Assembly: GCA_041694815.1 (NCBI GenBank)
Contig: JBGFSC010000037.1
Span: 1-41,581, forward strand
Direction: 5' to 3'
DNA from: Elusimicrobiota bacterium
Lineage (GTDB): Bacteria; Elusimicrobiota; Elusimicrobia; UBA1565; JACRDR01
DNA length: 41,581 nucleotides
Below the pieces are notes generated by a model. It did not search any database, was not told where the DNA came from, and saw only the letters and a program-made list of their open reading frames with translations. The translations under genes were made by a program, and so were the position numbers. The stretch's first letter is position 1. Each line of letters opens with the position of its first letter. Shown here in pieces: positions 1,215 to 41,454 of this stretch.

Positions 1215-1252
1215 GAGGCCTAGGGCCTAGGGGCGCCTAGGCCTTTCGGGAA
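1215..1252. promoter_or_regulatory. Tandem 14-bp palindromic boxes (array A)
   Basis: GAGGCCTAGGGCCT at 1215-1228 and AGGCCTTTCGGGAA at 1239-1252, period 24. The proximal box is 22 nt from the -10 of the 935-1180 gene. Confidence 0.6.
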
Positions 1253-1293
1253 TGCATGGAACTTTTCGGGCCGTCGATCGTACTAGTGGGCGT

Positions 1294-2067
1294 TCATCGG
1301 GAGGAAGGGCGCGAGGCCTCCCGCACCGAGAGAAACAAGGTCAGCGCGGCGAAGGCGGTCATGACGCCCAGGCAGAGCAGCGGGTCCGGCATGGACGCGC
1401 CGTGGAGCAGCAGGCCGCGCTGCAGCGAGGCGACGCTGTAGGTGATGGGGTTTAAGATCATGACGACCTTCAGCCACAGGGGCACCCCGACGGCGGGAAA
1501 AAGGGCGCCGGAGAGAAGCCACATTGGAATCAAAAAAAGATTCATCACGGCGTGAAAACCCTGCGTCGAATCCAGCCGCCATGCCAACAAGAACCCGAGA
1601 CCCGCCAAGCCCAGAGCCACGAGGAACAGCGAGATGAGTAGCAGGGGCAGCGCCCAGAGGCTCAGCCGCAGCCCCGCCGCCGGCGCCAGGATCAGGAAGG
1701 TCAGGCCCTGCAGGAAGCCCAGCGAGGCGCCGCCCAAGATCTTGCCGAGAACTAGGCTCAGCCTCGGAACCGGCGCCACCAGTACGCCCTGGAGGAAGCC
1801 TTCCCTCCTGTCTTCAATCACGGAAATCATCGAGAAGATCGAGGTGAACAAGACGATCAAGACGATCGTTCCCGGAAAGAAGAATTGCAGATAATTGGAG
1901 CCGTAAGGCAGGCCCGGCGCGTAGAAGGAGCCGCTGAGTCCCGACCCGATCAAGAACCAGAAGACGACGGGGGGCGCTAGGGCGCCGATAAGCCGGCTGC
2001 GGTCGCGGTAGAAGCGCAGGATCTCGCGCTCGAGCAGGCAGAGGGCGGGGCTTAAGATTTCCCTCAT
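1294..2067 (-). CDS. ABC-2 type exporter permease (DrrB-like)
   Basis: Start MREILSPAL at 2067, overlapping the ATPase stop (ATGA). Motifs FFFPG, EDRREGFLQGVLVAP, LLSGALFP and NPITY. Confidence 0.9.
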   Translation of the reverse strand: MREILSPALCLLEREILRFYRDRSRLIGALAPPVVFWFLIGSGLSGSFYAPGLPYGSNYLQFFFPGTIVLIVLFTSIFSMISVIEDRREGFLQGVLVAPVPRLSLVLGKILGGASLGFLQGLTFLILAPAAGLRLSLWALPLLLISLFLVALGLAGLGFLLAWRLDSTQGFHAVMNLFLIPMWLLSGALFPAVGVPLWLKVVMILNPITYSVASLQRGLLLHGASMPDPLLCLGVMTAFAALTLFLSVREASRPSSR

Positions 2068-3002
2068 GCCCCGTCCCCGTTCCAGAAGCGATGGCGGGTG
2101 TGGTGGATGAACACGTCCTCGAGCGTCGGCCGGCCCACCGTGATCGAGTCGATCTGCCGAGGGAAGGACTCGAACAGCGGGGGGATGAAGGAATGAGCCT
2201 CGCGGCGTTCGATGCGTATGGTGTCGTCGACTACCGCGGGATCGCCGCCGAACTTCGCCCGGATCTCCTCGCAAAGCCTGGCCGGCTCGGCGGTCCGGAT
2301 GGAGACGACCTCCCCGCCGATCGAGCTTTTAAGCTCCTCGGGGGTGCCGGAGGCCACCAATCGGCCTCGGTCGAGTATGGCGAGCCGATCGCAGTTTTCG
2401 GCCTCCTCCATGAGATGAGTGGTCAACAAGACGGTGATCCCGCCCTCCTTGAGCTCCTTGAGATGCGCCCAGAGGTCCTTGCGCGCGCCGGGGTCTAGGC
2501 CCGTGGAAGGCTCATCAAGCAAAAGCAACTCGGGGCGGTGCAGTAGGCCCTTGGCGAGCTCCACGCGCCGCCGAAGCCCGCCCGAAAGGGTCTCGGTCAG
2601 CTCCCGGGCGCGATCGCCCAGGCGCAGGCGGTGGAGGGATTGCGCGATGCGCTCTTGGAGTTCGGAGCCGGCGAGCCCGTAGAGCCGGCCGTGGTAGCGC
2701 AGGTTTTCCTGCACCGTCAGCTTGCGGTCGAGCCCCGGGTTCTGAAACACGACCCCGATGCGCCGACGGAGCTCGGCCGGGCGACCCAGCACGTCGATCC
2801 CCAGCACGGATGCGCTCCCACCCGAGGGGGCCAGCGAGCTCGCCAGGATGCGGAAGGCGGTGGTCTTGCCGCCGCCGTTGGGGCCGAGCAGCCCGAATAT
2901 CTCGCCTCGGCGCACCTGGAGGTCCAAGCCGTCTAGCGCCGCCCGCGCGGAGCCGGCGTAGCGATGCGACAGCGCCTTGGTTTCGACCGCCAACTCGCTC
3001 AA
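2064..3002 (-). CDS. ABC transporter ATP-binding protein (DrrA-like)
   Basis: Walker A GPNGGGKTT, signature LSGG, Walker B LLLLDEP, C-terminal PTLEDVF. TTG start overlaps the upstream stop (TTGA). Confidence 0.92.
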   Translation of the reverse strand: MSELAVETKALSHRYAGSARAALDGLDLQVRRGEIFGLLGPNGGGKTTAFRILASSLAPSGGSASVLGIDVLGRPAELRRRIGVVFQNPGLDRKLTVQENLRYHGRLYGLAGSELQERIAQSLHRLRLGDRARELTETLSGGLRRRVELAKGLLHRPELLLLDEPSTGLDPGARKDLWAHLKELKEGGITVLLTTHLMEEAENCDRLAILDRGRLVASGTPEELKSSIGGEVVSIRTAEPARLCEEIRAKFGGDPAVVDDTIRIERREAHSFIPPLFESFPRQIDSITVGRPTLEDVFIHHTRHRFWNGDGA

Positions 3003-3559
3003 TTCAGGCCTTCCCACTCCGTTTCCGTCCGTTCCAGCTTTTGGTTGGCCCAGCGGGCGGCGGTAAAGAGATGGTCGGAGAGCCGGTTGAGGTAGACGAT
3101 GAGGCGCTCCGGGACCGCCTCGCGCTCGGCGAGCGCGACCGCGCGCCGTTCCGCCCTGCGGCAGACGGTGCGCGCCAGGTGCAGCTGCGCGCCGGCCGTG
3201 GAGCCGCCGGGCAGGATGAATTTTTTAAGGGGCTTGAGCTCGGCCGTCCAAGCGTCGATCTCGGCTTCCAGTGCGGAGACGGCCGAGGCCGGCAGGCGTT
3301 CGGCCAGGGAGGCGGATTTTTCCGCCGGCGAGGCCAGTATGGCGCCGATGGTAAAGAGCTCTTTCTGGATCCGGCGCAGCGAGCCCTCCAGCCCGCCCAA
3401 GCCCTCCCGCGGCAGCGAGGCCAGGACCGCGCCGAGCGAGGAGTTGAGCTCGTCGACCTCGCCGTAGGCTTCCACGCGGGGATGATCCTTGCGCAGGCGC
3501 CCGCCTCCCCAAAGCCCGGTGTCCCCGCGATCGCCGGTCTTGGTGTAGATCTTGCTCAA
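2999..3559 (-). CDS. pduO: ATP:cob(I)alamin adenosyltransferase, PduO type
   Basis: KIYTKTGDRGDT, YGEVDELNS, FILPGG, ARTVCRRAER and YLNRLSD motifs. TTG start at 3559. Confidence 0.92.
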   Translation of the reverse strand: MSKIYTKTGDRGDTGLWGGGRLRKDHPRVEAYGEVDELNSSLGAVLASLPREGLGGLEGSLRRIQKELFTIGAILASPAEKSASLAERLPASAVSALEAEIDAWTAELKPLKKFILPGGSTAGAQLHLARTVCRRAERRAVALAEREAVPERLIVYLNRLSDHLFTAARWANQKLERTETEWEGLN

Positions 3560-4281
3560 AAGCGCGCCCCGAGGCCCATGTCCGCCCCGGGGATCCCATG
3601 GAGCAGCGTGAAGGCGCCGTAGAAATGGAAGAAGGGCAGAGGGGAAATATCCACGCCCGCGGTAAACCGCGTTCCGTTGGCCGTCGCCGACATGCCGGCC
3701 AGGCCCGGGACCGCCGCGGAGCCGACGGTCACCTTCGTCGAGTCCCAACCCGCGCCGATGTAGGGGTGTACGACGGGGAGGTTGAAGGAGGCCGCGGCGT
3801 TGAGCGAGAAATGCGTCGCGCTGAAATGGGTCTGATTGACCTTGTCCCCGAAGGCCGAAATCGAGATGTCGGGCAGCACGGACAGCAGCCCGCTTTTATG
3901 GATGCCGTAACGCAGGCCTCCGCCGAAGACGCGGGTGCCGGCCATGCTCATGCCGTGCACGATCACGTCGAAATTGAGCGGCAGGCCCACTTCGGCCTGC
4001 AGCAGGGGAAAACCGAAGGCCTTGACGTTGGAGTCGCGCAATATCGTGTCGTTCTTATCGGGGCGGAACTGCAGGGTGCTTACCACGCCGACATCGAATC
4101 CGGGGAACCCCAGGGTGCGCCCCGAATGGAAGGCGGCTCCGCCGAGAATGCCCCCGATATCCAGGGCAAAGGGTTTGAGATTGGCGGCAGTCACCCGGTT
4201 ATGGAAATCGCCGAGAGGCGTGCCGAGTGCTGTTTGGGAAATCGCCGCAATGGTTAATAATGTTAGCAGGTATCGTTTCAT
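3556..4281 (-). CDS. Putative outer-membrane beta-barrel protein (DUF6588-like)
   Basis: Signal peptide, amphipathic beta-strands and a terminal Phe (GLGARF). Promoter TTGTCT(4318-4313)-N17-CATAAT(4295-4290)-N8-ATG. Confidence 0.65.
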   Translation of the reverse strand: MKRYLLTLLTIAAISQTALGTPLGDFHNRVTAANLKPFALDIGGILGGAAFHSGRTLGFPGFDVGVVSTLQFRPDKNDTILRDSNVKAFGFPLLQAEVGLPLNFDVIVHGMSMAGTRVFGGGLRYGIHKSGLLSVLPDISISAFGDKVNQTHFSATHFSLNAAASFNLPVVHPYIGAGWDSTKVTVGSAAVPGLAGMSATANGTRFTAGVDISPLPFFHFYGAFTLLHGIPGADMGLGARF

Positions 4282-4324
4282 AAGTACGCATTATGGAAAA
4301 TAGGCGATGCGCAGACAAGCCGAT

Positions 4325-4360
4325 TATCCACAAACTTCTCGCGAGAGAAGTTTGTGGATA
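4325..4360. repeat. Perfect 16-bp inverted repeat containing DnaA-box sequences
   Basis: TATCCACAAACTTCTC-GCGA-GAGAAGTTTGTGGATA. TTATCCACA at 4324-4332 and a 1-mismatch box on the opposite arm. Confidence 0.7.
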
Positions 4361-4361
4361 G

Positions 4362-5336
4362 TTAATCTCCTATCGCCTGATGGGTTGGAATGGATTGCGA
4401 ATGATTGAACGAGGAAAAACGTCCTTTTTCACCATTAAGGTAGCGAAGCAATTCGACGGCCCGGGCGGGCACTTTTCGGAAATAGCAATGCACGCTCCAG
4501 TCTCTAGGCAACGGGATCGTTTTCACTGTTCCATCGGGCAGTTGCCTCATCGAATTTTCATTTTTGCCTCTTGTGATAATTCCTTTTAGCCGTAGAGTTT
4601 CTGCATCGAACACGGGTCCGCCAGAGGCACCGGGGAAAACACTCAGATTGGCATAAAATTCTATATCTTTCTCTCCTAAAACCGGGGCATTCCCAGTTAC
4701 CTTTGCCGGAAGGCCTACAGGATGGCTGATCGAAAAAACCTGGGTCCCCGGTTTGACTGCCGAATGTTGGTCCAGCTTGACCGGTTTTCGAGGCGTCGCC
4801 GGTCGATCCAACCGGATCAATGCCCAGTCATCCGTTCCCTTCAGTCCGAATGCCAAGATATGGCCGGTGAAAACATTCTCGACAGAGATTTCAGGGCCCT
4901 CTTTCCGTCGCAAGTCAAAATTAAAAACAAAGCGAATCGTTTCAATGGATTTATTCTCTATGCAATGTCCTGCCGTTAAAACGATGTCCGGACCGACAAG
5001 TACGCCGGAACAAAAAGCTCCGCGCACCTGTCCATAAAAGCGTTCTTCCGGACTAAGCTTAACGTAAGGGGTGGGGGTGGCCTGAAAGTTGGCAACGGTC
5101 TCCTTAGCCATTTGTTGCGTGACTTCGACGTAAGACCAGCCATTGATCTGAACCACGCCTTGCGTGATTTTTAGGGAATTTTCCATAAACAGCGCCACCG
5201 TGGCATCGGCTAATTCGCGAATCGTTGGATTGGCGATCTCATAAAGTTCTTTGCGATCATCTTCCCCATAAACCGGCATCGCCTCTACGAGGGTAGGGGA
5301 CAGCAGGACGGCGAATACAAGCATATGCAGCCTCAT
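4362..5336 (-). CDS. Secreted trypsin-like (S1) serine protease, paralog 1
   Basis: Signal peptide, then MPVYGEDDR. Triad motifs VLTAGHC, DWALIRL and GASGGPV. Lower GC than the flanks. TACACT lies 6 nt before the ATG. Confidence 0.88.
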   Translation of the reverse strand: MRLHMLVFAVLLSPTLVEAMPVYGEDDRKELYEIANPTIRELADATVALFMENSLKITQGVVQINGWSYVEVTQQMAKETVANFQATPTPYVKLSPEERFYGQVRGAFCSGVLVGPDIVLTAGHCIENKSIETIRFVFNFDLRRKEGPEISVENVFTGHILAFGLKGTDDWALIRLDRPATPRKPVKLDQHSAVKPGTQVFSISHPVGLPAKVTGNAPVLGEKDIEFYANLSVFPGASGGPVFDAETLRLKGIITRGKNENSMRQLPDGTVKTIPLPRDWSVHCYFRKVPARAVELLRYLNGEKGRFSSFNHSQSIPTHQAIGD

Positions 5337-5471
5337 GCTACTAGTGTACACTGGCGCCCACTGGCAGGCCAATCAATTTTTATTCATAAAAGAAATCATT
5401 ATTAATAAATGATTTTTTTATATCTTGTTGTAGGCTTGTTATGAAGCTGAATTTAAGGCCCGCCGCTTTTT

Positions 5472-5504
5472 ATACTTGATTAATTCAGTCAGGTATGTTA
5501 TTCT
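5472..5504 (+). promoter_or_regulatory. suf operon sigma70 promoter overlapped by an IscR type-1-like operator
   Basis: ATACTTGATTAATTCAGTCAGGTAT (5472-5496) matches the IscR type-1 consensus ATASYYGACTRWWWYAGTCRRSTAT at 24/25. -35 TTGATT 5476-5481, N17, extended -10 TGtTATTCT (hexamer 5499-5504). Confidence 0.85.
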
Positions 5505-5525
5505 AATTTGGTTCTAGGAGGACGC

Positions 5526-6284
5526 ATGCCACCCTTGCTTCAAATAGAGGATCTGCACGTTCAGGTCGACGGAAAGCCCATTTTAAAGGGCGTAAATTTG
5601 AAGGTCGAATTGGGACAAGTGCACGCCTTGATGGGCCCTAACGGCTCCGGCAAAAGCACCTTGTCCAATACCCTGATGGGCCATCCGAAATATCGGGTAA
5701 CCCAGGGGCGCATCCTATTTGAGGGCGAGGATATCACGGCGGCCAAGCCGCATGAGCGGGCCCGCAAAGGGATATTCCTGGCTTTCCAGTACCCCATGGC
5801 CATCCCGGGGGTCACGGTCGCCAATTTCCTGCGCACGGCGCTCAAGGCGGTCCAGGGCGAGGGGATCATCAAGACCTTCCGCAAGAGCCTCAAGGAGAAG
5901 ATGCAGGCCCTGGAGATGGACGAGAAATTCGCCACCCGCTACGTCAACGACGGGTTCTCGGGGGGCGAGAAAAAGCGTCTGGAGACCCTGCAGATGGCGA
6001 TGTTCGCGCCGAAGCTCGCGGTGCTCGACGAGACCGACTCCGGCCTCGACATCGACGCGCTGCGCATCGTCTCGGCGGGCATCAACGGCGTCGCCTCCCC
6101 CGCCAACGCGATCCTGCTCATCACCCATTACCAGCGCATCCTCGATTACGTCAAGCCCCATTTCGTCCACGTGCTCATCGGCGGCCAGGTCGTCCATTCG
6201 GGAGGGCCCGAGATGGCCAGCGAGCTCGAGAAGAAGGGCTACGACTGGCTGCAGCCGAAGGAAGAGAAGCTGGTGCAGGCGTAA
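5526..6284 (+). CDS. sufC: Fe-S cluster assembly ATPase SufC
   Basis: [30 protein letters not shown] and ITHYQR motifs. SD AGGAGG precedes ATG 5526. Confidence 0.97.
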
Positions 6285-6296
6285 GCCCCCAAACCC

Positions 6297-9207: not shown

Positions 9208-9210
9208 ACG

Positions 9211-14668: not shown

Positions 14669-15169
14669 GTGGCCTTATTCGAGCCCGTATTTGCCGCGCT
14701 TAATGGCGCGGATGTCCGCTATATCGTCGTCGGTGGGCTTGCGGTGGTTCTGCACGGGTATCCACGTCTAACCGCCGATGTCGATATCGTATTGGATTTG
14801 GAGTCTTCTTCGGCCCGAAAGGCCTTGGAGGCCCTGGCGGGACTTGGGCTTAAATCGCGGCTTCCGGTTGACCTTTTGGCCTTTGCGGATGCCCGACAGC
14901 GAAACGATTGGATTGAGAATAAGAACATGCAGGTGTTTACCTTGTATTCTTCTTCGAACCCATTGCTCACCCTTGATCTATTTGTTCGGGAACCGATCCC
15001 ATTCGAGCAACTTTGGGAACGTTCCGAAATTCTTGATTTGAACGGTGCCCAGGTCCGCGTGGCCTCCATGGACGATCTGATCGCGATGAAACAGGCCGTA
15101 GGGCGTCCTCAGGATCTAATCGACGTCGAGGCCCTTAAGGCGTTAAAAGAAGCGCGAAAGCGGAGATGA
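14669..15169 (+). CDS. Putative nucleotidyltransferase (DUF6036/AbiEii-like)
   Basis: VGGLAVVLHGYPRLTADVD and DLIAMKQAVGRPQD motifs. TATACT lies 5 nt before the GTG. Lower GC. Confidence 0.8.
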   Translation: MALFEPVFAALNGADVRYIVVGGLAVVLHGYPRLTADVDIVLDLESSSARKALEALAGLGLKSRLPVDLLAFADARQRNDWIENKNMQVFTLYSSSNPLLTLDLFVREPIPFEQLWERSEILDLNGAQVRVASMDDLIAMKQAVGRPQDLIDVEALKALKEARKRR

Positions 15170-15321
15170 CCCCCGAGCCATCATCCTGGGAATGCACGTG
15201 GGAGGACGCGCGCCGACGGCAATTGATCGCAGGGCTCGAGGCGACTCCCGCCCAGCGGTTGGCTTGGCTGGAAGAGATGATACTCTTGGCGCATCGCAGT
15301 GGGGCGCTGCCGAAGCATTAG
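15166..15321 (+). CDS. Small 51-aa partner protein of the nucleotidyltransferase (not in the ORF track)
   Basis: ATGA overlap with the NTase stop. MTPEPSSWECTWEDARRRQLIAGLEATPAQRLAWLEEMILLAHRSGALPKH. Confidence 0.7.
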   Translation: MTPEPSSWECTWEDARRRQLIAGLEATPAQRLAWLEEMILLAHRSGALPKH

Positions 15322-15323
15322 TT

Positions 15324-15893
15324 TCATCGATGCCTCAGTCCGTGGACCCAAGACGCGAGATTCTCGCTCAGAATGGTGATCCAGACCTGGATGGCGCAAG
15401 GCAGCGGCAAGAGCCCACAGAAGGCGGCAAGGACGGCCGAATTCCATACAGAATAACCCTGTTTGAGTAAGCCGATCGCGGTCAGGACGGCCAAGCCCAG
15501 GCTGCTCCAAACCCAAAACGACAGCGGGACCTGGCCCGCCACGGCGGCAACGGCGAGTATCGTCGCGGCAGTGGGCGCCACCATAGCCGCAGCGCCCCCC
15601 GCCAGCTGATCAACGCCGTCTGGAACGCAATGACGATGGTTGCTCGGCTCTTTAACTACGATCGGGCCGCGTCGAACCCTGTTTCGTCCCGTGATCAATG
15701 ATTGGAACTTGATTCCGAGATTCGCCTCCGCCAGGCTCGACCCCGCCGAGTCGCCCGTTGGAGCAATAGCCTCGCCAAATCTGATCCCAGATTCATGTTT
15801 AATTCCTTCAAACGACTGAGCAAAAACCAAGCCGGATTTGGCCGCGAACAATAATGAAAGAAACATCGCTCGCTGGAGCGTTGCCGATGGCAC
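15324..15893 (-). CDS. Secreted/membrane hypothetical protein with a hydrophobic C-terminus
   Basis: In-frame GTG at 15893 lies 6 nt after -10-like CAAACT (15905-15900); the alternative start is ATG 15866. Signal-like N-terminus and C-terminal TM segments. Confidence 0.55.
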   Translation of the reverse strand: MPSATLQRAMFLSLLFAAKSGLVFAQSFEGIKHESGIRFGEAIAPTGDSAGSSLAEANLGIKFQSLITGRNRVRRGPIVVKEPSNHRHCVPDGVDQLAGGAAAMVAPTAATILAVAAVAGQVPLSFWVWSSLGLAVLTAIGLLKQGYSVWNSAVLAAFCGLLPLPCAIQVWITILSENLASWVHGLRHR

Positions 15894-15928
15894 GCTCAAA
15901 GTTTGCAGGACGAAACGCGGCCGCGCCT

Positions 15929-15988
15929 GGGCCATTAGGGTCCTCGAAGAAGAGCCCTTTGGGCTGAGGGAGCTGGGTCTAAAGGCCC
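15929..15988. promoter_or_regulatory. Tandem 14-bp palindromic boxes (array B)
   Basis: GGGCCATTAGGGTC 15929, GAGCCCTTTGGGCT 15952 and GGGTCTAAAGGCCC 15975, period 23. Confidence 0.65.
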
Positions 15989-16001
15989 GCTTGACGCAGG
16001 C

Positions 16002-16409
16002 CTACGCGGGACTGTCGACGTCGACATCGTGCTGTGGATTTCCAGGGAAAACTTCCTCAAGGCCGAAGAGGCGTTTAAGGCCTTGGGTCTGATTAGCCGT
16101 CTTCCGGTGTCGGCCGCGGAGGTATTCGCTTTCCGGGAGGAGTACATCGCCAATAAAAACCTGAAGGCCTGGAGTTTTTACAATCCGGCCAATCGTGCCG
16201 AGATCGTTGATGTGATACTGACAGAGGATTTGGCGAAACTAAAGGTTAAGCGGGTCAGGTTGGGGCGACACCTTTTGCCGATCATCAGCCTCAAGGTGCC
16301 CGAGGATCTTCTCACGATGTTTAAGGACAAAGCGGCCCGCAGCGGGGTTGCCTACCAGACGCAGATCAAGCGCTTGATGGCCGAATGGTTGGGCCTTACC
16401 AGTTTCTGA
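16002..16409 (+). pseudogene. 5'-truncated nucleotidyltransferase fused in frame to a CopG/BrnA-like ribbon-helix-helix antitoxin tail
   Basis: The frame reads LRGTVDVDIVL...GLISRLPV...NKNLKAW, homologous to the 14669 NTase but lacking its GG motif. It then switches to ISLKVPEDLLTMFKDKAARSGVAYQTQIKRLMAEWL. Confidence 0.7.
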
Positions 16410-16827
16410 TTTTCTTGACCGAGTAGGCGATCACGAGCCCCAGCCCCGCGCCGACGATTTGGCCGATCATTAGGCCCGGAGTTCCTGCCAAGGCGAGACC
16501 CCCAAGCATCCCCGCGAGCATGCCGAGGCCGATGACGGCGGCTCCGCCGACGGATTTGTTCCCAGCCCCGATCGTGTGCGGGTGGACTCCCCTGGGTTCC
16601 ACGACGACGATCGGCGCTCTGAGCCCGGGCTTGGCCGTCCGAGCCGCCTGGGTTGCCGGGCCAGCTCCCGAGCCGGGGCCTGCGGCAATTTCGGGCGCCG
16701 GCCGCTGCGCCGCATTGTGATCGAATTGTTTGCCCGCCGCCGCGCTCGCCTCCTCGTCGCCGGCGGCGAAGCCGGAGGGCGCGGAAACCATCGAAATAGC
16801 CAGAGCCAGATAAACTATTCTTGTCAT
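16396..16827 (-). CDS. Secreted protein with a C-terminal glycine-zipper membrane segment
   Basis: Signal peptide, Ala/Pro linker and GxxxG-rich tail. CATACT lies 6 nt before the ATG. Confidence 0.7.
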   Translation of the reverse strand: MTRIVYLALAISMVSAPSGFAAGDEEASAAAGKQFDHNAAQRPAPEIAAGPGSGAGPATQAARTAKPGLRAPIVVVEPRGVHPHTIGAGNKSVGGAAVIGLGMLAGMLGGLALAGTPGLMIGQIVGAGLGLVIAYSVKKIRNW

Positions 16828-16862
16828 GCGCTTAGTATGCGGCGAGCGTCACGTATTCGCGT

Positions 16863-16923
16863 GAGGCTTTGGGCCTACGCCTCGATGGTCTTAAGGCCCA
16901 TCCCAGATTAGGTCTTAAGACAC
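16863..16923. promoter_or_regulatory. Tandem 14-bp palindromic boxes (array C) shared by divergent promoters
   Basis: GAGGCTTTGGGCCT 16863, TGGTCTTAAGGCCC 16886 and AGGTCTTAAGACAC 16910. Each outer box is 23 nt from a -10 (CATACT 16839-16834; AATAAT 16947-16952). Confidence 0.7.
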
Positions 16924-16958
16924 TTTTGGAAGGGGCATGATGAGGCAATAATGAACGT

Positions 16959-17684
16959 ATGAGGAGACTAATTTTAAACGTGGCGCTGCTTGGTATCATC
17001 CTAGCGCCGCGTAGTCATGCGACGATATTCCAACTCAACCAAGCCGTGCTTCTTTATGATAATAACGGATACATCAATGCAGGATCTGTCGATGCCTTCT
17101 TTCCCGATGGCTCCGTCGCAATACGGCGCAGTTCGGATGGTGTTCTCAAGCGAGCGGACATTAACAATATCGCTAGAACCCAGGGCTGTGTCGGACGCTT
17201 TTGTGTCGGTGAGGAGGTCGTTGTCCTTTACAGAGATCACTATAAAAACTCTGAAAAGATATGTCATGGATTAGTAAAAGGTTTTTTTGACGATGGGACA
17301 ATCGCCGTCCTTGCCGAAAATTGGCATAGGGTTCAAGACCAAGCTTTGGCCTCCCTGAAGGGATCTGCGGGTGATCTTAAGGTCGGGGATTTTATCGTCG
17401 CTGACAAGGGAAGCCAGGCTGGTGTCTTCGATGCCGAGATCGTGGGTTTCTTCTCTCCTTCGCTTGTCGCGGTACGCAGCCATATTGCTGGGACTACGTA
17501 TTATCATCAAGTGAGGCGCGATGATATAGCCCGCAAGGGCGCGCCGATCACCGGCTTGGGCCCTCTGGAGGAGCTGGAGCAGCGCTTGGCCGAGCAGGCC
17601 TCGACGTTGGGTTTTGCCGGCGATGAAAGCGCCGAAGTGCGCTATAGGCTGCCGGACGCCGATCAAAAGACGGAAAATCCTTAG
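16959..17684 (+). CDS. Secreted hypothetical protein with three small beta-rich repeats
   Basis: Signal peptide. Repeats GSVDAFFPDGSVAI / GLVKGFFDDGTIAV / AEIVGFFSPSLVAV. Low-GC body. Confidence 0.7.
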   Translation: MRRLILNVALLGIILAPRSHATIFQLNQAVLLYDNNGYINAGSVDAFFPDGSVAIRRSSDGVLKRADINNIARTQGCVGRFCVGEEVVVLYRDHYKNSEKICHGLVKGFFDDGTIAVLAENWHRVQDQALASLKGSAGDLKVGDFIVADKGSQAGVFDAEIVGFFSPSLVAVRSHIAGTTYYHQVRRDDIARKGAPITGLGPLEELEQRLAEQASTLGFAGDESAEVRYRLPDADQKTENP

Positions 17685-31056: not shown

Positions 31057-31123
31057 AGGTCCAACAGCCCAAATCGGATAGGGACGTAAGGCTCTTGCGG
31101 GTCCCGTGAAGCCATTGAATACT
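31057..31123 (+). promoter_or_regulatory. Tandem 14-bp boxes (array D) plus -10
   Basis: AGGTCCAACAGCCC 31057 and GGGACGTAAGGCTC 31081, period 24. AATACT at 31118-31123 is exactly 23 nt downstream. Confidence 0.55.
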
Positions 31124-31171
31124 GGCTGTATGCGTGTGCTTGCCGCGGTTTATTAGATCGTCTGGAGTCCC

Positions 31172-31768
31172 ATGAAAAATAATGTCGCGTTATTTATGAT
31201 CGTTTTATTTTTGGGGCGGTGTTGCTTCGCGGAGGAATCGCCGGAAGATGCCGCAATGAGCGGGCGGCGCGGTCCTTGGATGGAAACCGCCGGAGATCTG
31301 CAGCCAGCGCCCGTTCGAGCTGGCGGGCTGCCCCGGGCGTCGTTAAAACTGGATACTCCCTTAAGGAAAGCGGCTCTCCCGCGCGCTATGCCGTCCCGAT
31401 CGACGCGTCGTTGCGGAGAAGAAAATCCTCCTTCCGGAACGGTCCGAACCCTGCTGGGAGCCGCCGTAGGCGCCGGAATTGCCGTCGGGGTTAATGCGTT
31501 GATTTCTTACGCGGGCTGGTTGCTTTGGCACCAAAGTTGGATGACCCTGGGTTTATTTGGTTGCGCCCTGGGCATCGCCGCCGGTGTCGTAGGCGCCCGA
31601 AGCGCCCCAGGAGGCAAGGGTTGGCGGGGCTGGGCCAAATCCGGGTTGGCCGCGGCCTTATGCGCGGGTGGAGCTCTCGCCGTGACCGTCGTGGCGATCG
31701 CCGGCCTCTTTGGCATCCTTATGGGCTTGTGTGCGTTAACCTCGTGTATGTCCGGAATGTTTCTTTAG
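31172..31768 (+). CDS. Secreted protein with C-terminal glycine-zipper TM segments
   Basis: Signal peptide, basic/Pro linker and GxxxG-rich helices. SD GGAG. Confidence 0.7.
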   Translation: MKNNVALFMIVLFLGRCCFAEESPEDAAMSGRRGPWMETAGDLQPAPVRAGGLPRASLKLDTPLRKAALPRAMPSRSTRRCGEENPPSGTVRTLLGAAVGAGIAVGVNALISYAGWLLWHQSWMTLGLFGCALGIAAGVVGARSAPGGKGWRGWAKSGLAAALCAGGALAVTVVAIAGLFGILMGLCALTSCMSGMFL

Positions 31769-33807: not shown

Positions 33808-34806
33808 ATGATACGCCTCGCGCTTGTCTCCTTGGCGGTCGTCGGATTGGTGAAGCCGGCACAAGGGATGCCGACTTACGGTGTCGACGATCGCATGAAT
33901 CTACATCAGGTCATCGATCCGAGTATTCACGCTTTGGCAGAGTCCGTGGCCATCTTTCTTCTCGACAGCCGTCCCTTAGGGGGATATTATCGCTTCAATT
34001 TCTCACGTTTCGAGAACGGAGGAGTAATTCGAGTGAACCGCGCTGGCGAATGGAGTATGTCGGAATTCCCATTTAGCCCAAAGGAACGTTTTTATGGTGA
34101 ACCTCAACTGAGCGATGGCTGGTGCTCGGCCGCTCTGATAGGGCCGGATTTGGTCTTAACCGCTGGCCACTGCGTCGACGAGGAGATATGCCCGCGCCTC
34201 AAGGTCCTGTTTGATTTTGTCCTAGACGAGCATGGACGCGTATCGGCGAGCAGACGTGAGGATGAGGTCTATCAGTGCGGTCAAGTAAAAGGGGTTTGGA
34301 ATCCCGGCGGAGAGGACTGGGCGTTGATCCGGCTGACAAAAACCGTTAAAAACCGCCGGCCATTGCCGATCAATACCACGGGAGCGCGCATTAAGCCTGG
34401 TACACAAGTATTTACCATGGGGTATCCTTATTCGGTTCCGTTGAAAGTCAGCTCAAGGGCGACGGTCCGGTCCAATCAGCCTTCGAAAAATCTTTTTTTG
34501 GCCGATCTCGATGTGATGCCTGGAAATTCGGGAGGGCCGGTCTTCAATGCGAAAACCTTGCTTATCGAAGGGGTCGTCAGTACCCAGGGGCATTCGGGCG
34601 TCGCACGGCGCAAGGATGGCACGATGATTTCCCGACCGCTCCCAAACGACAGCCCTGCCGCCCTGTTGACGCGCGTGACCGGTATTCACGCCGTCTTGCC
34701 TTACTTATATCGTCGCTTGCTCCATCCAGTCGTACTTCCGGAACCCATGCCGGTTGAAGATTTCGAATACTTCCGGGGGGCAAAGCTTTTTAAACCCTAT
34801 CCATAG
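33808..34806 (+). CDS. Secreted trypsin-like (S1) serine protease, paralog 3
   Basis: Signal peptide, then MPTYGVDDR. Triad motifs VLTAGHC, DWALIRL and GNSGGPV. Confidence 0.9.
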   Translation: MIRLALVSLAVVGLVKPAQGMPTYGVDDRMNLHQVIDPSIHALAESVAIFLLDSRPLGGYYRFNFSRFENGGVIRVNRAGEWSMSEFPFSPKERFYGEPQLSDGWCSAALIGPDLVLTAGHCVDEEICPRLKVLFDFVLDEHGRVSASRREDEVYQCGQVKGVWNPGGEDWALIRLTKTVKNRRPLPINTTGARIKPGTQVFTMGYPYSVPLKVSSRATVRSNQPSKNLFLADLDVMPGNSGGPVFNAKTLLIEGVVSTQGHSGVARRKDGTMISRPLPNDSPAALLTRVTGIHAVLPYLYRRLLHPVVLPEPMPVEDFEYFRGAKLFKPYP

Positions 34807-34831
34807 TAATTTTTGGCTTGTTTCGTACCAG

Positions 34832-35128: not shown

Positions 35129-35151
35129 GATTTAATAGTATCATTTCCGCC

Positions 35152-36399: not shown

Positions 36400-36405
36400 G
36401 GCCTT

Positions 36406-36434
36406 AGTATGGGCGGTGGGCTGCGCCTTGTCAA
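36406..36434 (-). promoter_or_regulatory. Leaderless sigma70 promoter of the VWA gene
   Basis: TTGACA(36434-36429)-N17-CATACT(36411-36406)-N6-ATG. Confidence 0.8.
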
Positions 36435-37405
36435 GAGAGATTGCGTTTCCAGGCGTGCTCGCGCAGCGCCTCGAGGGTTTCGGCGGGATACGGAGGCTCT
36501 CCGGAGACCCGTACGTTAGCCTCCACATGGGAGGCCTTGCGCATGCCCGGGATCACTGTCGAGACGGCGGGAAAGCTGAGGCAGTAGCGCAGCGCCGCGT
36601 AAGCCAGGTTGGGGGCCTTGTCTCCGTCTACGAGCGCCGATTCCAGGCGCTTGGCGCGGCGGACGGTCTCGGCGAGAAGGCCTCCCGAGAAATAGCTGCT
36701 CCGGAAATCGTCCGGATCGAAGCGCGTGTCCTCGCGCAGGGCGCCGGTCAGGCCTCCCTCGTCGAACGGCACCCGGACGATCACGCCGATTTTCTTCTCG
36801 ACACAGAGGGGAAATAATTTATCCAGGGGCTCCTGCTCGAACAGGTTGAATATGACCTGTACGGTATCGATCGCCCCCGAGGCGGCGATCCTGAGCGCGC
36901 TGTTGGGCTTTCGCGAGTCGATCGATACGCCCCAGAAGCGGACCTTTCCCTGGCGGGTGAGCCGCTCCATGGCCGTCCTGGCATCGTCGAAGGCGGCCGA
37001 GTCCATCCAGGCGTCCTGCCAGACATGAAGCTGTTGCAGCTCCACTTGCTCCGCTCGCAGCTGCTTGAGGCTGCGCTCGGTGCAGCGGACGATCCAATCG
37101 CCCGGGAAGGCCTCCTGGAGGGGGCCGGCGCTCGGCCATTTGCCGTTCTTGGGAGGGACCTTCGTCGCCACCATCGCGCCGCGGCCAAACTCCTTGAAGG
37201 CGCGCGCGATCAGGGCCTCCGAATGACCGTCGCCGTAGACGTAGGCGGTGTCGAAGAAATTGATTCCCAGTTCCAGGGCCCGGCGCAGGGCGGCGAGCGA
37301 CTGGGCGTCGTCGGAGTCGGTCCACAGGGACTTGCCGATGCCCCAGGAGCCGAAGCCGATCTCGGATACTTTCAGGCCGCTGCGGCCGAGCGTTCTAAGT
37401 TGCAT
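36431..37405 (-). CDS. Aldo/keto reductase
   Basis: LGRSGLKVSEIGFG, FFDTAYVYG, ATK, SLKQL and VIPG motifs. Confidence 0.94.
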   Translation of the reverse strand: MQLRTLGRSGLKVSEIGFGSWGIGKSLWTDSDDAQSLAALRRALELGINFFDTAYVYGDGHSEALIARAFKEFGRGAMVATKVPPKNGKWPSAGPLQEAFPGDWIVRCTERSLKQLRAEQVELQQLHVWQDAWMDSAAFDDARTAMERLTRQGKVRFWGVSIDSRKPNSALRIAASGAIDTVQVIFNLFEQEPLDKLFPLCVEKKIGVIVRVPFDEGGLTGALREDTRFDPDDFRSSYFSGGLLAETVRRAKRLESALVDGDKAPNLAYAALRYCLSFPAVSTVIPGMRKASHVEANVRVSGEPPYPAETLEALREHAWKRNLS

Positions 37406-37848
37406 CGGGTTTGCCTTAAGGCCTCGAACAGGACGACTCCCGCGGCCGTCGAAAGGTTGAGCGAGCGCTCGCCCGGCAGCATGGGGATGCGGTACACGCG
37501 TTCACTGTGGCGCTCATGCACCCAGGCCGGCAACCCGCCGGTCTCCTTGCCGAAAACCAAATAGCTTCCGGGGCGGTACGGGGCGTCCCAAAATACCTGC
37601 CTTCCCTTGGTGGAAAAGAAGAACAGTGGCGCGTGCGCCGGCAGGGAATCAAGAAAGGTTTCAAGGCTTGGGTGCCGACTGAGCCTTAGGCGCGGCCAAT
37701 AATCCAGCCCCGCGCGGCGTATCTCCTTGGCGTCCAATCGAAATCCCAAGTTTCCAACCAGGTGCAATTCGGCTCCGGTCGCTACGCAGCTGCGCCCGAT
37801 ATTGCCCGTATTCCAGTGGATTTCAGGCTCAACGAGGACGATGTTCAT
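37372..37848 (-). CDS. trmL: tRNA (cytidine/uridine-34 2'-O)-methyltransferase
   Basis: PEIHWNTGNIGR, RRAGLDYW, FGKETGGLP and RSLNLS motifs. Confidence 0.93.
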   Translation of the reverse strand: MNIVLVEPEIHWNTGNIGRSCVATGAELHLVGNLGFRLDAKEIRRAGLDYWPRLRLSRHPSLETFLDSLPAHAPLFFFSTKGRQVFWDAPYRPGSYLVFGKETGGLPAWVHERHSERVYRIPMLPGERSLNLSTAAGVVLFEALRQTRCNLERSAAAA

Positions 37849-37886
37849 GCCTGGTACCGAGTGTAGCAATTTTACATAATGGTCCC

Positions 37887-38519
37887 GTGATCGACCTTTT
37901 CCTCCACTTGGACAAGCATTTGCTGGAAATCACGCAGGCCTATGGGCGCTGGAGCTACCCGCTTCTGTTTCTCATCGTCTTCTGCGAGACGGGGCTGGTG
38001 GTGACGCCCTTTCTGCCGGGCGATTCGCTGCTGTTCGCGGCCGGAGCGCTGGCGGGGATGGGAATACTCGACCCGATCTGGCTATTCGTGCTGTTGTGGA
38101 TAGCGGCCGTGGCCGGGGACACGCTCAATTATTGGATCGGCGCGAAGGTTGGGCCGCGAGCCTTTCAAGGCAATATCCGTTTCCTGAAGAAGGAATATCT
38201 TGAGCGCACGCGCGTCTTTTATGAGAAGTACGGAGGCAAGACCATCGTGCTGGCGCGATTCATGCCGATCGTGCGCACCTTCGCGCCCTTCGTGGCCGGC
38301 ATCGGAGCCATGAATTATCCGCAGTTCGTCGCCTACAACGTGATCGGGGGTTTCATCTGGGTGAGCGTCTTCATCGGCGGAGGGTATTGGTTCGGGAACC
38401 TGCCCTACGTCAAGCAGAACTTCACGTTGGTGATCATGGCCATCATCGTCCTCTCGATTCTGCCCGGGGTATTCGAGTACATCTCCCATCGGCGCGCGCA
38501 AAAGATCCGCGCCCTATGA
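37887..38519 (+). CDS. dedA: DedA family membrane protein
   Basis: FCETGLVVTPFLPGDSLLF and ARFMPIVRTFAPFVAG motifs. CATAAT lies 6 nt before the GTG. Confidence 0.95.
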   Translation: MIDLFLHLDKHLLEITQAYGRWSYPLLFLIVFCETGLVVTPFLPGDSLLFAAGALAGMGILDPIWLFVLLWIAAVAGDTLNYWIGAKVGPRAFQGNIRFLKKEYLERTRVFYEKYGGKTIVLARFMPIVRTFAPFVAGIGAMNYPQFVAYNVIGGFIWVSVFIGGGYWFGNLPYVKQNFTLVIMAIIVLSILPGVFEYISHRRAQKIRAL

Positions 38520-39907
38520 TTCTTTTCAACACGCTCACCCGAAACAAGGAGGAATTCAAGCCCTTAAGTCCTCCCGAGGTCCGGCTCTACACCTGCGGCC
38601 CGACCGTCTACAATTACCAGCATGTCGGCAATTACCGGACCTACGTATTCGAGGACGCGCTGAGGCGCTCGCTCTCTTTCCTCGGCTTTCGGGTGCGGCA
38701 TACCATGAATATCACCGACGTGGGACATCTTACCAGCCAGGCCGACGAGGGGGAGGACAAGGTCGAGCTCGAAGCGGCGCGCTCCGGCAAGAGCGCCTGG
38801 GACATCGCCCGCTTCTATACCGAGGCCTTTCTCGAGGATACGCGCAAGCTCAACATACAGCCTCCGGATGTGCTCTGCAAGGCGACGGATCACATCCCGG
38901 AGCAGATCGAGCTCGTCCGGCGATTGGAGGCCAAGGGATTCATCTATAAGGCCTCCGACGGACTCTACTTCGACACCTCGAAGTTTCCCTCGTACGGGCA
39001 GCTCATGGGCCAGGCGTATCAGGCGGGGCTCATGGCCGGAGCCCGGGTCGAGGCCAATCCGGAGAAGCGGCGGCCCAGCGATTTCGCGGTGTGGAAATTC
39101 TCGCCGAAGGACAAAAAGCGGCAGATGGAATGGGATTCTCCCTGGGGGAAAGGTTTTCCCGGCTGGCATATCGAGTGCTCCGCCATGGCGATGAAGTACC
39201 TCGGCGAGACCTTGGACATCCATTGCGGCGGCGTCGACCATATCCCGATTCACCATACCAACGAGATCGCCCAGTCGGAGGGGGCGACGGGCAAGCCCTT
39301 CGTGCGCTTCTGGCTCCACGGCGAGTTCCTGCTCATGAACAGCGCCAAGATGGCCAAATCCGCGGGCGGCTTCATCCGCCTTGCCGATCTGCAAGCCAAG
39401 GGCTACGATCCCCTCGACTACCGCTATCTCTGCCTGACGGCTCATTACCGCAAGCAGCTCGATTTTTCCTTCGAGGCCCTGGACGCGGCCAAGAGCGCCT
39501 TGCAGAAGCTGCGCGCCCGGCTGCAGTTGCTGCGCCGCGAGGCCAAGAAGCCCGGCTGCGCCGACGAGCTCGAGAAGGCGATGCAGCGCTTCAAGGAGCG
39601 CATCGCCGACGACCTGGACATGCCCGGGGCCCTGGCCGCGTTGTGGGACGCGCTCAAGGATGCCTCCTTGATGCCGGGATCCGCGCTGGCCATTTCCGAG
39701 CACGCCGACCGGGTGCTGGGCCTCAAGCTTTTGGAGGGCGCCGACGGGGAGCTCCCCGCCGAGCTCCAGGCGCTTCTCGAGCGCAGGGAAATGGCTAGGA
39801 AGGAGAAGGATTTCGCCGCCTCGGACGCCCTGCGCAAGCAGCTCGCCGAGAAGGGCGTCATCGTCGAGGACACTCCGTCCGGCCAGCGCTGGATCCGGAG
39901 AAATTGA
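38516..39907 (+). CDS. cysS: Cysteine--tRNA ligase
   Basis: CGPTVY, HVGN, PGWHIECSAM, HHTNE and KMAKS motifs. ATGA overlap with dedA. Confidence 0.98.
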   Translation: MILFNTLTRNKEEFKPLSPPEVRLYTCGPTVYNYQHVGNYRTYVFEDALRRSLSFLGFRVRHTMNITDVGHLTSQADEGEDKVELEAARSGKSAWDIARFYTEAFLEDTRKLNIQPPDVLCKATDHIPEQIELVRRLEAKGFIYKASDGLYFDTSKFPSYGQLMGQAYQAGLMAGARVEANPEKRRPSDFAVWKFSPKDKKRQMEWDSPWGKGFPGWHIECSAMAMKYLGETLDIHCGGVDHIPIHHTNEIAQSEGATGKPFVRFWLHGEFLLMNSAKMAKSAGGFIRLADLQAKGYDPLDYRYLCLTAHYRKQLDFSFEALDAAKSALQKLRARLQLLRREAKKPGCADELEKAMQRFKERIADDLDMPGALAALWDALKDASLMPGSALAISEHADRVLGLKLLEGADGELPAELQALLERREMARKEKDFAASDALRKQLAEKGVIVEDTPSGQRWIRRN

Positions 39908-40728
39908 TGCGTCCTAGGCCGAGGCGCAAGGAGCGGCACGGGCGCGGCGAAAAGCAGCGCGAACAAGACAGCTGGCGTTGGCTTTGGGGGCGGCACGCCG
40001 TCGAGGAAGCCCTCCATGCCAACCCGCGAAATGCCGTCGAGTTGTGGATACTCACCGGAAGCGAGGGGCCGCACATTCGGGAGTTGGTGCAGGCCGCCCG
40101 CGGAGCCGGCGCGAAGGTGCGCTGGGGCAGCCGCGCCGAGCTCGACCGCCTCTCTCACAGCGCGCCGCATCAGGGCCTGGCCCTCAAGACGGCGGAAAGG
40201 GCGACCGAGGGGTTTTCCACCTTCCTTGAGGGGATCGACGAGGGAGCCCGCGGCTCGACGCTGCTTGTGGCCTTAGACCAGATTCAAGACCCCCACAATC
40301 TCGGCGCCATCGCCAGATCCGCCGTCTGCCTCGGCGCCAAGGCGCTTTTAGTCCCCGAGCGGCGCACTTCTCCTGTCACGCAGGTGGCGGTGCAGGCCTC
40401 GGCCGGGGCGATCGAGAGGATTCCGGTCTTTACGATCGGCAATCTCGCCCAGACGCTGGAAAAACTGAAGAAGGAAAACTTTTGGATCTACGGCGCCGAT
40501 ATGTCCGGCGAGCCCGCTTGGAAGGCCGTGCTCAATTTCCCCATGGTGCTCGTGATCGGTTCCGAGGGTTACGGCATGCGTCCCCTGGTGCGCGAGCGCT
40601 GCGACCAGCTGATCAAGATACCGCAATCGGCCGAAGGGGTCTCTAGCCTCAACGCCTCCTGCGCGGCCAGCGTGCTGCTTTATGAGGCGGCCCGCCGGCT
40701 TAGAGGCCCTTCAGGGGCAGCGCCTTAA
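39907..40728 (+). CDS. rlmB: 23S rRNA (G2251-2'-O)-methyltransferase RlmB/TrmH family
   Basis: GRHAVEEAL, HQG, DPHNLGAI, GSEGYG and SLNAS motifs. Confidence 0.93.
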   Translation: MRPRPRRKERHGRGEKQREQDSWRWLWGRHAVEEALHANPRNAVELWILTGSEGPHIRELVQAARGAGAKVRWGSRAELDRLSHSAPHQGLALKTAERATEGFSTFLEGIDEGARGSTLLVALDQIQDPHNLGAIARSAVCLGAKALLVPERRTSPVTQVAVQASAGAIERIPVFTIGNLAQTLEKLKKENFWIYGADMSGEPAWKAVLNFPMVLVIGSEGYGMRPLVRERCDQLIKIPQSAEGVSSLNASCAASVLLYEAARRLRGPSGAAP

Positions 40729-41379
40729 CAGTTTTTCTAAGGTCGCCAGCGCCATGGCGAAATCAGCCTTCCATCGGGAGCCGGCGCAGCCGGGATAGTA
40801 GACGTTTTTGAGCGGATGCCCCCCGTCGCAAAATGGCTCCAAGGCCGCGACGCCCGTTTCGATCTGCCAGGTGTAGACTTCCACTTCGCGGCATTGGTAG
40901 TGCCGTCCGTCCGTCCATCTCGCCATGAATTCCGGCGTGCCCGAGAGCGCTCGCCATTGCTGGTAATGCCCCGCCTCGTGCATCACGACGAGGCGTATGT
41001 AGGCGCGGCAGGTTTTCTCGTCTAGACGGAAAAAATTGCAGGCAGGCCACCAGGCCAGGAATTTTCCGTTTTCATCCACTTCTCCGAAAGGAATAAGGGC
41101 TCCCGGTTTCGGGGGCCAGGAAAAGTCCCAGCGATGATCGGCCGGCAGACCCTCGTAAACGACCGACACGAAGTGGTCGAAGTGGAGGTAATTGGACCAT
41201 TCCTGGGTGTCCAGGAGTCGGTATTCCATTCCTGGCGCAAACCGCGACAGCTCTTGGACAAGCACCGCCTCGTACCAGGACTTCGAGTAAAGCAAAGGCG
41301 GTTCGGTCGGCGCCTGGGCAAAAATGGATACAGAATTGAGGAGCAACAGGGTTCCGACCAAAACTATCCGTCTGGCCAT
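40711..41379 (-). CDS. Secreted HExxH putative metallopeptidase
   Basis: Signal peptide, VVMHEAGHYQQ and a downstream REVEVY. -10-like TACGCT lies 8 nt before the ATG. Confidence 0.65.
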   Translation of the reverse strand: MARRIVLVGTLLLLNSVSIFAQAPTEPPLLYSKSWYEAVLVQELSRFAPGMEYRLLDTQEWSNYLHFDHFVSVVYEGLPADHRWDFSWPPKPGALIPFGEVDENGKFLAWWPACNFFRLDEKTCRAYIRLVVMHEAGHYQQWRALSGTPEFMARWTDGRHYQCREVEVYTWQIETGVAALEPFCDGGHPLKNVYYPGCAGSRWKADFAMALATLEKLLRRCP

Positions 41380-41416
41380 ACAGCATTAGCGTAAATCGGG
41401 GGGCGGAGGTTATCAG

Positions 41417-41454
41417 GTGTCTTTCGGCCTAGGGTGAGCTAGGAAAAAGGGCCT
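41417..41454. promoter_or_regulatory. Tandem 14-bp palindromic boxes (array E)
   Basis: GTGTCTTTCGGCCT 41417 and AGGAAAAAGGGCCT 41441, period 24. The proximal box is 23 nt from -10 TACGCT (41393-41388). Confidence 0.6.

Follow-up and report, generated by a model that had tools for sequence, protein, structure and literature searches.

Array-bearing promoters in the window

The window analysed here, a 41,581-nt stretch that makes up the whole of contig C33 (JBGFSC010000037.1) of the Elusimicrobiota genome G000 (assembly GCA_041694815.1; 2.77 Mb, 54 contigs, 97.8% complete), contains five arrays of short palindromic boxes, each placed at a nearly constant distance from the -10 hexamer of one or two genes for exported proteins. 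These arrays belong to a genome-wide set that very probably consists of activator sites, whichever protein binds them, and that is probably read by a single response regulator of the NarL type. A previous reading of the window (the original prediction) had located 12 boxes in the five arrays, and all of them were recovered, each scoring above the 99.86th percentile of window positions with a held-out matrix, i.e., one built without C33. In keeping with the assignment of G000, most Atlas relatives of one of its proteins come from the Elusimicrobiota. The arrays, promoters and targets are given below, with distances measured from the 14-mer edge of the box closest to the promoter (the near box), and with Pfam matches of target proteins accepted at 1e-6.

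1215..1252: array A, boxes 1215-1228 and 1239-1252, period 24 bp, held-out scores 15.2 and 6.5
1187..1192, minus strand: -10 hexamer TACACT of array A, 22 nt from the array
935..1180, minus strand: target of array A, an 81-aa leaderless open reading frame (ORF) with a signal-peptide-like start and without a Pfam match
15929..15988: array B, three boxes at 15929, 15952 and 15975, period 23/23 bp
15900..15905, minus strand: -10 hexamer CAAACT of array B, 23 nt from the array
15324..15893, minus strand: target of array B, a 189-aa ORF with a GTG start and without a Pfam match
16863..16923: array C, boxes at 16863, 16886 and 16910, period 23/24 bp, a two-way promoter
16834..16839, minus strand: leftward -10 hexamer CATACT of array C, 23 nt from the array
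16396..16827, minus strand: leftward target of array C, a 143-aa ORF without a Pfam match
16947..16952, plus strand: rightward -10 hexamer AATAAT of array C, 23 nt from the array
16959..17684, plus strand: rightward target of array C, a 241-aa signal-peptide ORF
31057..31094: array D, boxes 31057-31070 and 31081-31094, period 24 bp
31118..31123, plus strand: -10 hexamer AATACT of array D, 23 nt from the array
31172..31768, plus strand: target of array D, a 198-aa ORF without a Pfam match
41417..41454: array E, boxes 41417-41430 and 41441-41454, period 24 bp
41388..41393, minus strand: -10 hexamer TACGCT of array E, 23 nt from the array
40711..41379, minus strand: target of array E, a 222-aa signal-peptide ORF with an HEXXH motif (HEAGH)
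41459..41462, plus strand: 4-bp target-site duplication of element Y, with its partner at the right end of contig C32
41463..41581, plus strand: left end of the multi-copy insertion sequence (IS) Y, 8 nt past the far box of array E

The six hexamers named in the original prediction are all present at these distances, and a start codon follows each of them after 6-8 nt. At array D, the leaderless ATG at 31130 does lie 6 nt past the -10, as predicted, but it opens an 8-codon frame (31130-31156) that ends in TAG, and the signal-peptide gene itself starts at 31172 in the same phase; the short frame is either a tiny upstream ORF or an older start that was cut off by the stop. The hexamer CATCGT at 41478, once proposed as a further promoter of array E, can be discounted, since it falls inside the IS that begins at 41463.

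Exported proteins are the common theme of these targets. The 143-aa leftward target of array C has a signal peptide and a hydrophobic, glycine-rich C-terminus, the 198-aa target of array D has a signal peptide followed by a hydrophobic glycine-rich C-terminal half, and the target of array B combines a signal-peptide-like start with about three hydrophobic segments; the 81-aa target of array A is short and possibly degraded. The two window targets checked for relatives proved to be singletons among proteins of similar length, given that the rightward target of array C had no relative but itself among 1216 candidates, and that only itself was recovered for the target of array E among 271. The Atlas look-alikes of the latter are unnamed or SprT-like (0.90-0.93), and serve as a lead only. 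The window has four further genes for exported proteins (two trypsins, a vWA protein and a DUF6588 protein), which have no array.

The motif and its promoter geometry

When the matrix of the 12 boxes was applied to the other 53 contigs, the spacings between paired boxes peaked at 23 and 24 bp (20 and 23 pairs at score 8), with mostly 0-4 pairs at other spacings, except at 22, 25 and the second harmonic of 46-47. The period of 23-24 bp that had been predicted from the window is thus found elsewhere in the genome, and exceeds chance. Iteration of the search yielded the 16-bp palindrome TRGGYC-H-WW-D-GRCCYA, a 6-2-6 arrangement with an A/T centre that resembles the Dev box. The real matrix gave 137 chains, as against 3-38 with ten column-shuffled matrices, and these chains merge into 120 arrays of boxes 22-25 bp apart, of which 76, 38 and 6 contain two, three and four boxes, respectively, and perhaps some 15 are false. 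The 170 spacings within these arrays are distributed as 24 bp (69), 23 bp (55), 25 bp (24) and 22 bp (22) in a chain search that permitted 22-25 bp only; the unrestricted profile of pair spacings also peaks at 23-24 bp.

The position of the promoter relative to the array is nearly invariant. The pattern TANNNT lies exactly 23 nt from the array in 53 of the 240 flanks, where 2 are expected, and at 22 or 24 nt in 24 flanks; at 21-25 nt it occurs in 80 of the 240, compared with 4.5% of random intergenic positions. CANNNT adds 23 further flanks at offset 23, and AANNNT, seen twice in the window, has no genome-wide enrichment (6 at offset 23). Start codons peak at 35-37 nt from the box, with a mode at 35 nt (ATG or GTG in 27 of the 240 flanks), so the transcripts of many targets are probably leaderless and the near box would be centred at about -42.5, the +1 position being deduced from the leaderless starts. 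The first base of the -35 position falls within the near box, and, as expected from the window, a consensus -35 is rare, given that at least five matches to TTGACA are found at only 1 of 52 boxed leaderless-type promoters, compared with 44 of 376 unboxed ones (p=0.03).

The boxes behave as independently evolved protein sites rather than hairpins or copies of one another. Their arms complement each other less than permuted partners do (3.32 vs 3.63 of 7 positions), there is no hairpin across the box spacer nor any covariation of the hairpin type, and neighbouring boxes are no more identical than the consensus implies. The centre is T-rich in the near box and A-rich in the second one, which places the pair head-to-head.

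Some arrays have notable neighbours. Those at C34:37087-37148, C40:147236-147273 and C52:20018-20056 adjoin tRNA genes (His, Cys and Pro, respectively), and in the C34 and C52 cases the tRNA is on the side away from the targets. In addition, C34:35007-35044, which is among the strongest genomic boxes (score 23), is found where a gene for a cysteine-rich Crp/FNR protein has its 3' end, and this box pair has no -10 at the usual distance.

Exported targets of the arrays

The association with exported proteins extends to the whole genome. By a hydrophobicity heuristic (not SignalP), a signal-peptide-like start follows 44 of the 52 boxed, but 112 of the 376 unboxed, leaderless-type promoters (odds ratio 13, p=3e-14), an enrichment that the original prediction had anticipated. 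Similarly, 73 of 91 rule-defined targets pass the same test, compared with 583 of 2270 called genes; the gene calls come from a dicodon model trained on G000, which called 2282 genes and misses many orphans, given that it called 55 of the 91 targets.

The 91 proteins scanned against Pfam comprise 90 rule-defined targets, one in-gene false positive having been dropped, and the window gene at 31172. No match was found for 59 of them. The claim that every target is an orphan with a signal peptide therefore holds in the window but not throughout the genome, where 32 of the 91 have Pfam matches and a few are cytoplasmic. The matched proteins include five WD40 propellers, five FGE-sulfatase-like proteins, a nuclease, a lytic transglycosylase, and peptidases of families S1, S8 (two), S9, M16, M28 and M41, as well as signal-peptide forms of FtsH, Lon, pyruvate kinase and a tandem AAA_5 protein. 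The spacing rule is also satisfied by metK, a glgB-like gene, a GFO oxidoreductase and an AcrB pump, the first three of these being cytoplasmic genes on the far side of two-way arrays. A three-box array precedes the gene of a 3925-aa protein at C21:33117, with its TANNNT about one period further away. Many targets have a G+C content below the genome level. A tag "FDG" after the signal peptide was seen in 5 of 73 targets vs 5 of 371 (p=0.014), which is not significant against the 26,542 patterns.

Three sets of targets illustrate the unusual forms. The gene at C9:44483-45616 (L091), which has a three-box array, encodes a pyruvate kinase barrel domain after a signal-peptide-like start. An array also precedes C20:63843-66542 (L106), which encodes an 899-aa signal-peptide protein with two AAA_5 domains and is followed by a 796-aa signal-peptide gene. 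Finally, C18:8636-9253 and C38:10129-10791, both with arrays, encode exported stand-alone relatives of the M41 protease domain of FtsH.

Conservation of the promoter design

A strict box-pair pattern is present in all 101 genomes of the order, with 10-66 matches in 90 of them and 0-8 for reversed-pattern controls. In a sample of 261 genomes of the phylum, box pairs are enriched in families f10, f16, f6 and f11 of the class, stand at the control level in f5, f7, f8, f12 and f14, and number 0-3 per genome outside the class; arrays recur in seven families of the class in all, and small genomes of 1.4-1.7 Mb retain the system. For example, of the 10 pair matches in G108 (family f10, 1.6 Mb), 8 have a -10 at 22-23 nt and genes that look by eye like signal-peptide genes, and none of the 91 G000 targets matches those 10 loci. 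Among nine loci from other genomes, two were matched by G000 targets. The promoter design is old, then, and the cargo has been replaced.

A NarL-type candidate for the reader

The original prediction left its activator unnamed, and a leading candidate can now be put forward, the NarL/FixJ-family response regulator of 226 aa at C27:50865-51545. Its receiver and DNA-binding domains both score above the cut-off (PF00072, 1.6e-29; PF00196, 6e-19), and it is the only protein of G000 with a GerE-type helix-turn-helix (HTH). The gene closes a cluster with an OmpR regulator, a CheY-like protein, a Cache-HAMP kinase and a REC-kinase, the two kinases being directly upstream and syntenic in many relatives. 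On one side the cluster is flanked by genes for a Flp pilin, a secretin, a TadA-type ATPase and two T2SSF proteins, and on the other by a Tad-domain-like gene. The best sequence match of the candidate in the PDB is VraR (1e-39), followed by DevR (3e-29), and in the alignment to DevR 3c3w the stretch KTVKN, which spans K179, K182 and N183, is identical. The helix S[VI]KT[VI]KNHLN is present in all of the 30 best orthologue loci examined, many of which retain the kinase and Tad neighbours. Orthologues with 62-96% identity occur in 56 of 80 genomes, all in families f1, f2, f3, f6, f10, f11 and f16, and a motif excess of at least 8 over the reversed-pattern control is seen in 39 of these 56 and in 1 of the 24 others, in a sample that was chosen with the motif counts already known and whose related genomes are not independent. 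There is a second copy of the regulator (61-83% identity) in G096, G127, G054, G078, G153, G009, G026 and five g10 genomes, and such paralogues may divide the regulon between them or enlarge it. The OmpR regulator of the cluster, which was not found in G095, G108 and G170, was set aside as a reader.

In the explanation we favour, the dimeric regulator, upon phosphorylation, would bind two to four adjacent boxes cooperatively, and the near dimer at about -42.5 would touch the poor -35 and recruit the sigma70 polymerase, as DosR/DevR does. One array could then fire two genes in opposite directions, and some 90 or more genes for exported proteins, dispersed and for the most part leaderless, would be switched on together. 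New orphan genes would join by the gain of an array, such that the promoter design is conserved across the class and the targets turn over. The motif, the spacing, the target bias and the distribution are observed, as are the uniqueness of the candidate and its co-occurrence with the motif, and we infer activation rather than repression, direct binding by C27:50865, and its kinase and signal. The single activator of class II geometry that had been envisaged for scattered exported orphans thus agrees with the fixed spacing, the poor -35 and the enrichment of signal peptides.

Several points weigh against this particular protein. G181 (40 pairs, 88% complete) is the sole motif genome in which no orthologue was detected, which suggests an assembly gap without proving it, since the neighbouring kinase is missing too and completeness is only 88%. 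In addition, 17 of the 56 genomes with an orthologue have little motif excess by the strict patterns, and the regulators of G005 and G303, which are 51-52% identical and have the same K-K-N residues, come without any excess. The K-K-N helix is a common one (17 of 76 parsable relatives among 150 hits), and it is also carried by PDB 7x1k, which we take to be DegU, presumably a reader of AT-rich sites. Furthermore, the regulator and the motif are probably confined to one clade, where any clade-specific gene would co-occur with the arrays, and the alternative reader families screened were four (Crp, one OmpR, HTH_3 and S24). The candidate gene itself has no array and is preceded by the promoter TTGACA-17-TATATT; nor was an array seen before the Flp pilin gene. 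In 13 syntenic loci, one of which (L041) has scattered box-like hits, no convincing array immediately precedes the TadG-like gene. The link to Tad is therefore one of synteny only. Finally, the period of 23-24 bp departs from the 21 bp at DevR tgs1, as given in the accessible text of PMC3177182.

Comparison with known regulons

The closest parallel is found in the DosR/DevR regulon, in which, according to the accessible part of PMC3177182, every DevR promoter has two to four tandem boxes, those of tgs1 being centred at -42.5 and -63.5, the proximal boxes lie 33-34 nt from the mapped starts (Table 1), and divergent genes are driven. The corresponding part of PMC13486717 describes how K179, K182 and N183 of DevR read GGGACT, with a site near -43.5 and a suboptimal -35. 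The G000 arrays likewise have GGG-x-C half-sites around an A/T centre, consist of two to four boxes in tandem with the near one at about -42.5 to -43.5, and go with a poor -35 and with two-way promoters; the candidate shares the K-K-N recognition residues. Taken as an 18-bp box, the G000 near box ends 33 nt before the inferred +1, as against the 33-34 nt of DevR (PMC3177182, accessible part). In a base-by-base comparison that used neither the logos nor the supplements of PMC3177182 and PMC13486717, the Dev base was the commonest or tied-commonest at 10 of the 12 outer box positions, and only positions 4 and 11 differ.

On the other hand, position 4 of the G000 half-site is a pyrimidine instead of A, and the period of 23-24 bp, in place of the 21 bp of tgs1, does not keep the helical phase. 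The G000 regulon, with about 90 or more genes, consists of exported orphans and hydrolases rather than dormancy proteins, and the regulator has no autoregulatory array and does not qualify as a DevR orthologue. Its neighbours are a Cache-HAMP kinase and a REC-kinase, unlike DosS/T, which are heme-GAF kinases. The regulon works like that of DosR, then, without being a member, as two defining features are lacking.

One other parallel is provided by Pseudomonas aeruginosa PprAB, given that PprB, in the accessible part of PMC3510237, is a NarL/LuxR-type response regulator encoded among tad genes which drives surface and secreted factors, including a very large adhesin. PprB differs in that it activates the pilus genes themselves along with a small regulon, whereas in G000 the Tad genes have no arrays and a large regulon is dispersed over the genome and changes quickly. 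A literature search, with most subscription papers outside its reach, found no paper on this motif or regulon, and the accessible parts of 10.1101/2023.11.21.568195, PMC11495043 and PMC7739468 do not include either.

Insertion sequences at the far edge of the arrays

The ends of the contigs show two unrelated elements, X and Y, at arrays. Element Y is represented by nine left and eight right ends, all at contig ends, of which about 120 nt each are assembled. Counted from the start of the far box, its 4-bp duplication begins after 18 nt in the seven of nine left ends that could be paired (six distinct sites), its orientation relative to the box is constant, and a scored box lies 8 nt away in eight of the nine left ends. 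The site is seemingly set by the distance from the box, because the duplicated bases vary and because one Y copy apparently landed in the end of X at the same distance. No whole copy of Y was found in 300 genomes of the class, metagenome contigs gave no match, and its end gave seven matches in genome contigs, mostly from Streptomyces, which were taken as chance.

Element X, with seven left and six right ends, duplicates 9 bp corresponding to positions 2-10 of the box (five paired sites), and all six right ends face the rebuilt box and the promoter. It belongs to the IS4 family, as defined by a transposase with DUF4372 and DDE_Tnp_1, terminal inverted repeats and a duplication of about 9 bp; the repeats and the duplication are seen in G000, whose own transposase is unassembled, and both domains are found in the transposase of a complete close relative in G026. 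This copy, the only complete X-like one among seven loci from 101 genomes, shows its 9-bp duplication within a degenerate box that has a strong box 24 nt away. As controls, a related element that also duplicates 9 bp has none of its 25 ends within 12 nt of a box, and four other repeat families have none of 15; the arrays with their margins make up 0.34% of the genome. Specific insertion at short host palindromes is known for some IS that target repetitive extragenic palindromic (REP) sequences (PMC1525189, accessible part), but X and Y use promoter operators rather than REP hairpins, and they insert with fixed offset and orientation at the far box, which leaves the promoter-side boxes intact. 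The transposases may recognise the DNA themselves or be tethered by the regulator bound to it. No account of IS targeting operator arrays was found in the literature within the same reach, outside most subscription papers.

At the right end of C3 and the left end of C38, the same two-box array is joined to a left end of Y, with different genes beyond, and the shared stretch ends at the outer edge of the box, which suggests promoter shuffling at arrays. At C49:1-145, a fused left-plus-right remnant of Y, a minimal footprint like a miniature inverted-repeat transposable element, directly adjoins a right end of Y.

Alternative explanations

The same activator logic could be served by another clade-restricted reader, such as a lambda CI-like or XRE dimer, which we consider unlikely. 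The lambda OR1-OR2-OR3/PRM region resembles the G000 arrays in its palindromes, its divergent promoters, its period of 23-24 bp, which suits them better than the 21 bp of tgs1, and its activating site at about -42; moreover, the screen of transcription-factor families was not exhaustive. On the other hand, lambda has a single switch and the G000 arrays are genome-wide, and no conserved CI-like protein was found. The eight HTH_3 domains of G000 have at most 42% identity to 17 HTH_3 loci of six motif genomes, G158 has no HTH_3 above the cut-off, and the NarL protein is kept at 62-96%. The only S24 protein, for which a LexA/S24 reader was considered and set aside, sits among resolvase and mobile-looking genes. 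A reader of the CRP/FNR family, the lead favoured by the original prediction, is scarcely tenable, even if the class II position suits it and G000 has three Crp HTH proteins, one of them with the strong box pair at its 3' end. It is largely refuted by motif genomes free of Crp, given that neither G095 (98% complete, with 23 box pairs) nor G158 (95%, with 14) gave a Crp HTH match, and that G170 gave only matches below the cut-off; the 6-2-6 box with its A/T centre also lacks the TGTGA/TTGAT core of such sites.

Two further explanations dispense with activation. In one, the protein would repress or silence exported genes that are foreign and potentially harmful, and derepression would induce them; this is in keeping with the overlap between the near box and the first base of the -35 position, and with the many targets of low G+C content, but it is quite improbable, given that repressors need neither fixed spacing nor a poor -35, and both the near-invariant distance (53 flanks at 23 nt and 24 at 22 or 24 nt) and the poor -35 are what activation predicts. 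It is highly improbable, finally, that the boxes are repeats akin to REPs or bacterial interspersed mosaic elements, or recombination sites kept by mobile elements, with the promoter link being secondary. Two IS do target the boxes, as some target REPs (PMC1525189, accessible part), but the boxes have no hairpin covariation and no identity between copies beyond the consensus, the arrays lie upstream of promoters at a fixed distance rather than downstream of genes, and only 15 of the 120 touch X or Y at the mapped array edge.

Possible function

The most likely purpose of the regulon, as we infer, is a program of secretion upon contact with surfaces or cells, with a link to Tad pili. A program of predation or antagonism may be read into it as well; in Myxococcus and Bdellovibrio, Tad machines reportedly serve to kill prey or to invade. 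The exported FtsH, Lon, AAA proteins and pyruvate kinase require ATP, ADP or phosphoenolpyruvate, which suggests that they act inside another cell, or that the periplasm is unusual. On the other hand, surface colonisation or nutrient scavenging seems about as likely as predation, given the Tad genes without arrays, the small genomes that retain the system, and the growth in pure culture of a member of the class, Elusimicrobium minutum, which we take to be established.

A tentative and rather doubtful joint reading would combine these elements. Much of the class Elusimicrobia would practise contact-triggered attack or host exploitation by means of a Tad-linked phosphorelay and the DosR-like regulator, with about 100 fast-evolving exported effectors, some of which would work only inside another cell. 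FtsH, Lon, the tandem AAA protein and pyruvate kinase would act as effectors on cytoplasmic substrates, the 3925-aa envelope protein could deliver effectors, and the bound regulator would steer the two transposases to safe spots at the far edge of the array.

For a barely studied class, a candidate master regulator is obtained together with a sequence tag, by which exported genes that otherwise resist annotation may be recognised as acting together in any of its genomes. The exported forms of FtsH and Lon are tied into one program with a giant envelope protein, and the question of lifestyle (free fermenter, or contact predator or parasite) becomes testable. Apart from this, two unrelated IS aim at the operator arrays of a transcription factor with base-pair precision.

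Other features of the window

No Rfam match was found in the window, and no sequencing run, of RNA or DNA, was listed as containing the stretch 40400-41581, which counts neither way. The two exported trypsin-like genes without arrays (4362-5372 and 33808-34806) have in common an AT-rich upstream element, AATCA...TGAT, a pattern that matches only those two places in the genome; they possibly represent a second small regulon or a common origin. Around array B and its target, at 14669-16409, lie a nucleotidyltransferase (DUF6036/AbiEii-like), a small ORF and a CopG-like fragment, which are decayed pieces of toxin-antitoxin systems adjoining regulon genes. Finally, the first ~120 bases of the window are the end of another multi-copy repeat, found at four contig ends, and lie away from the boxes.

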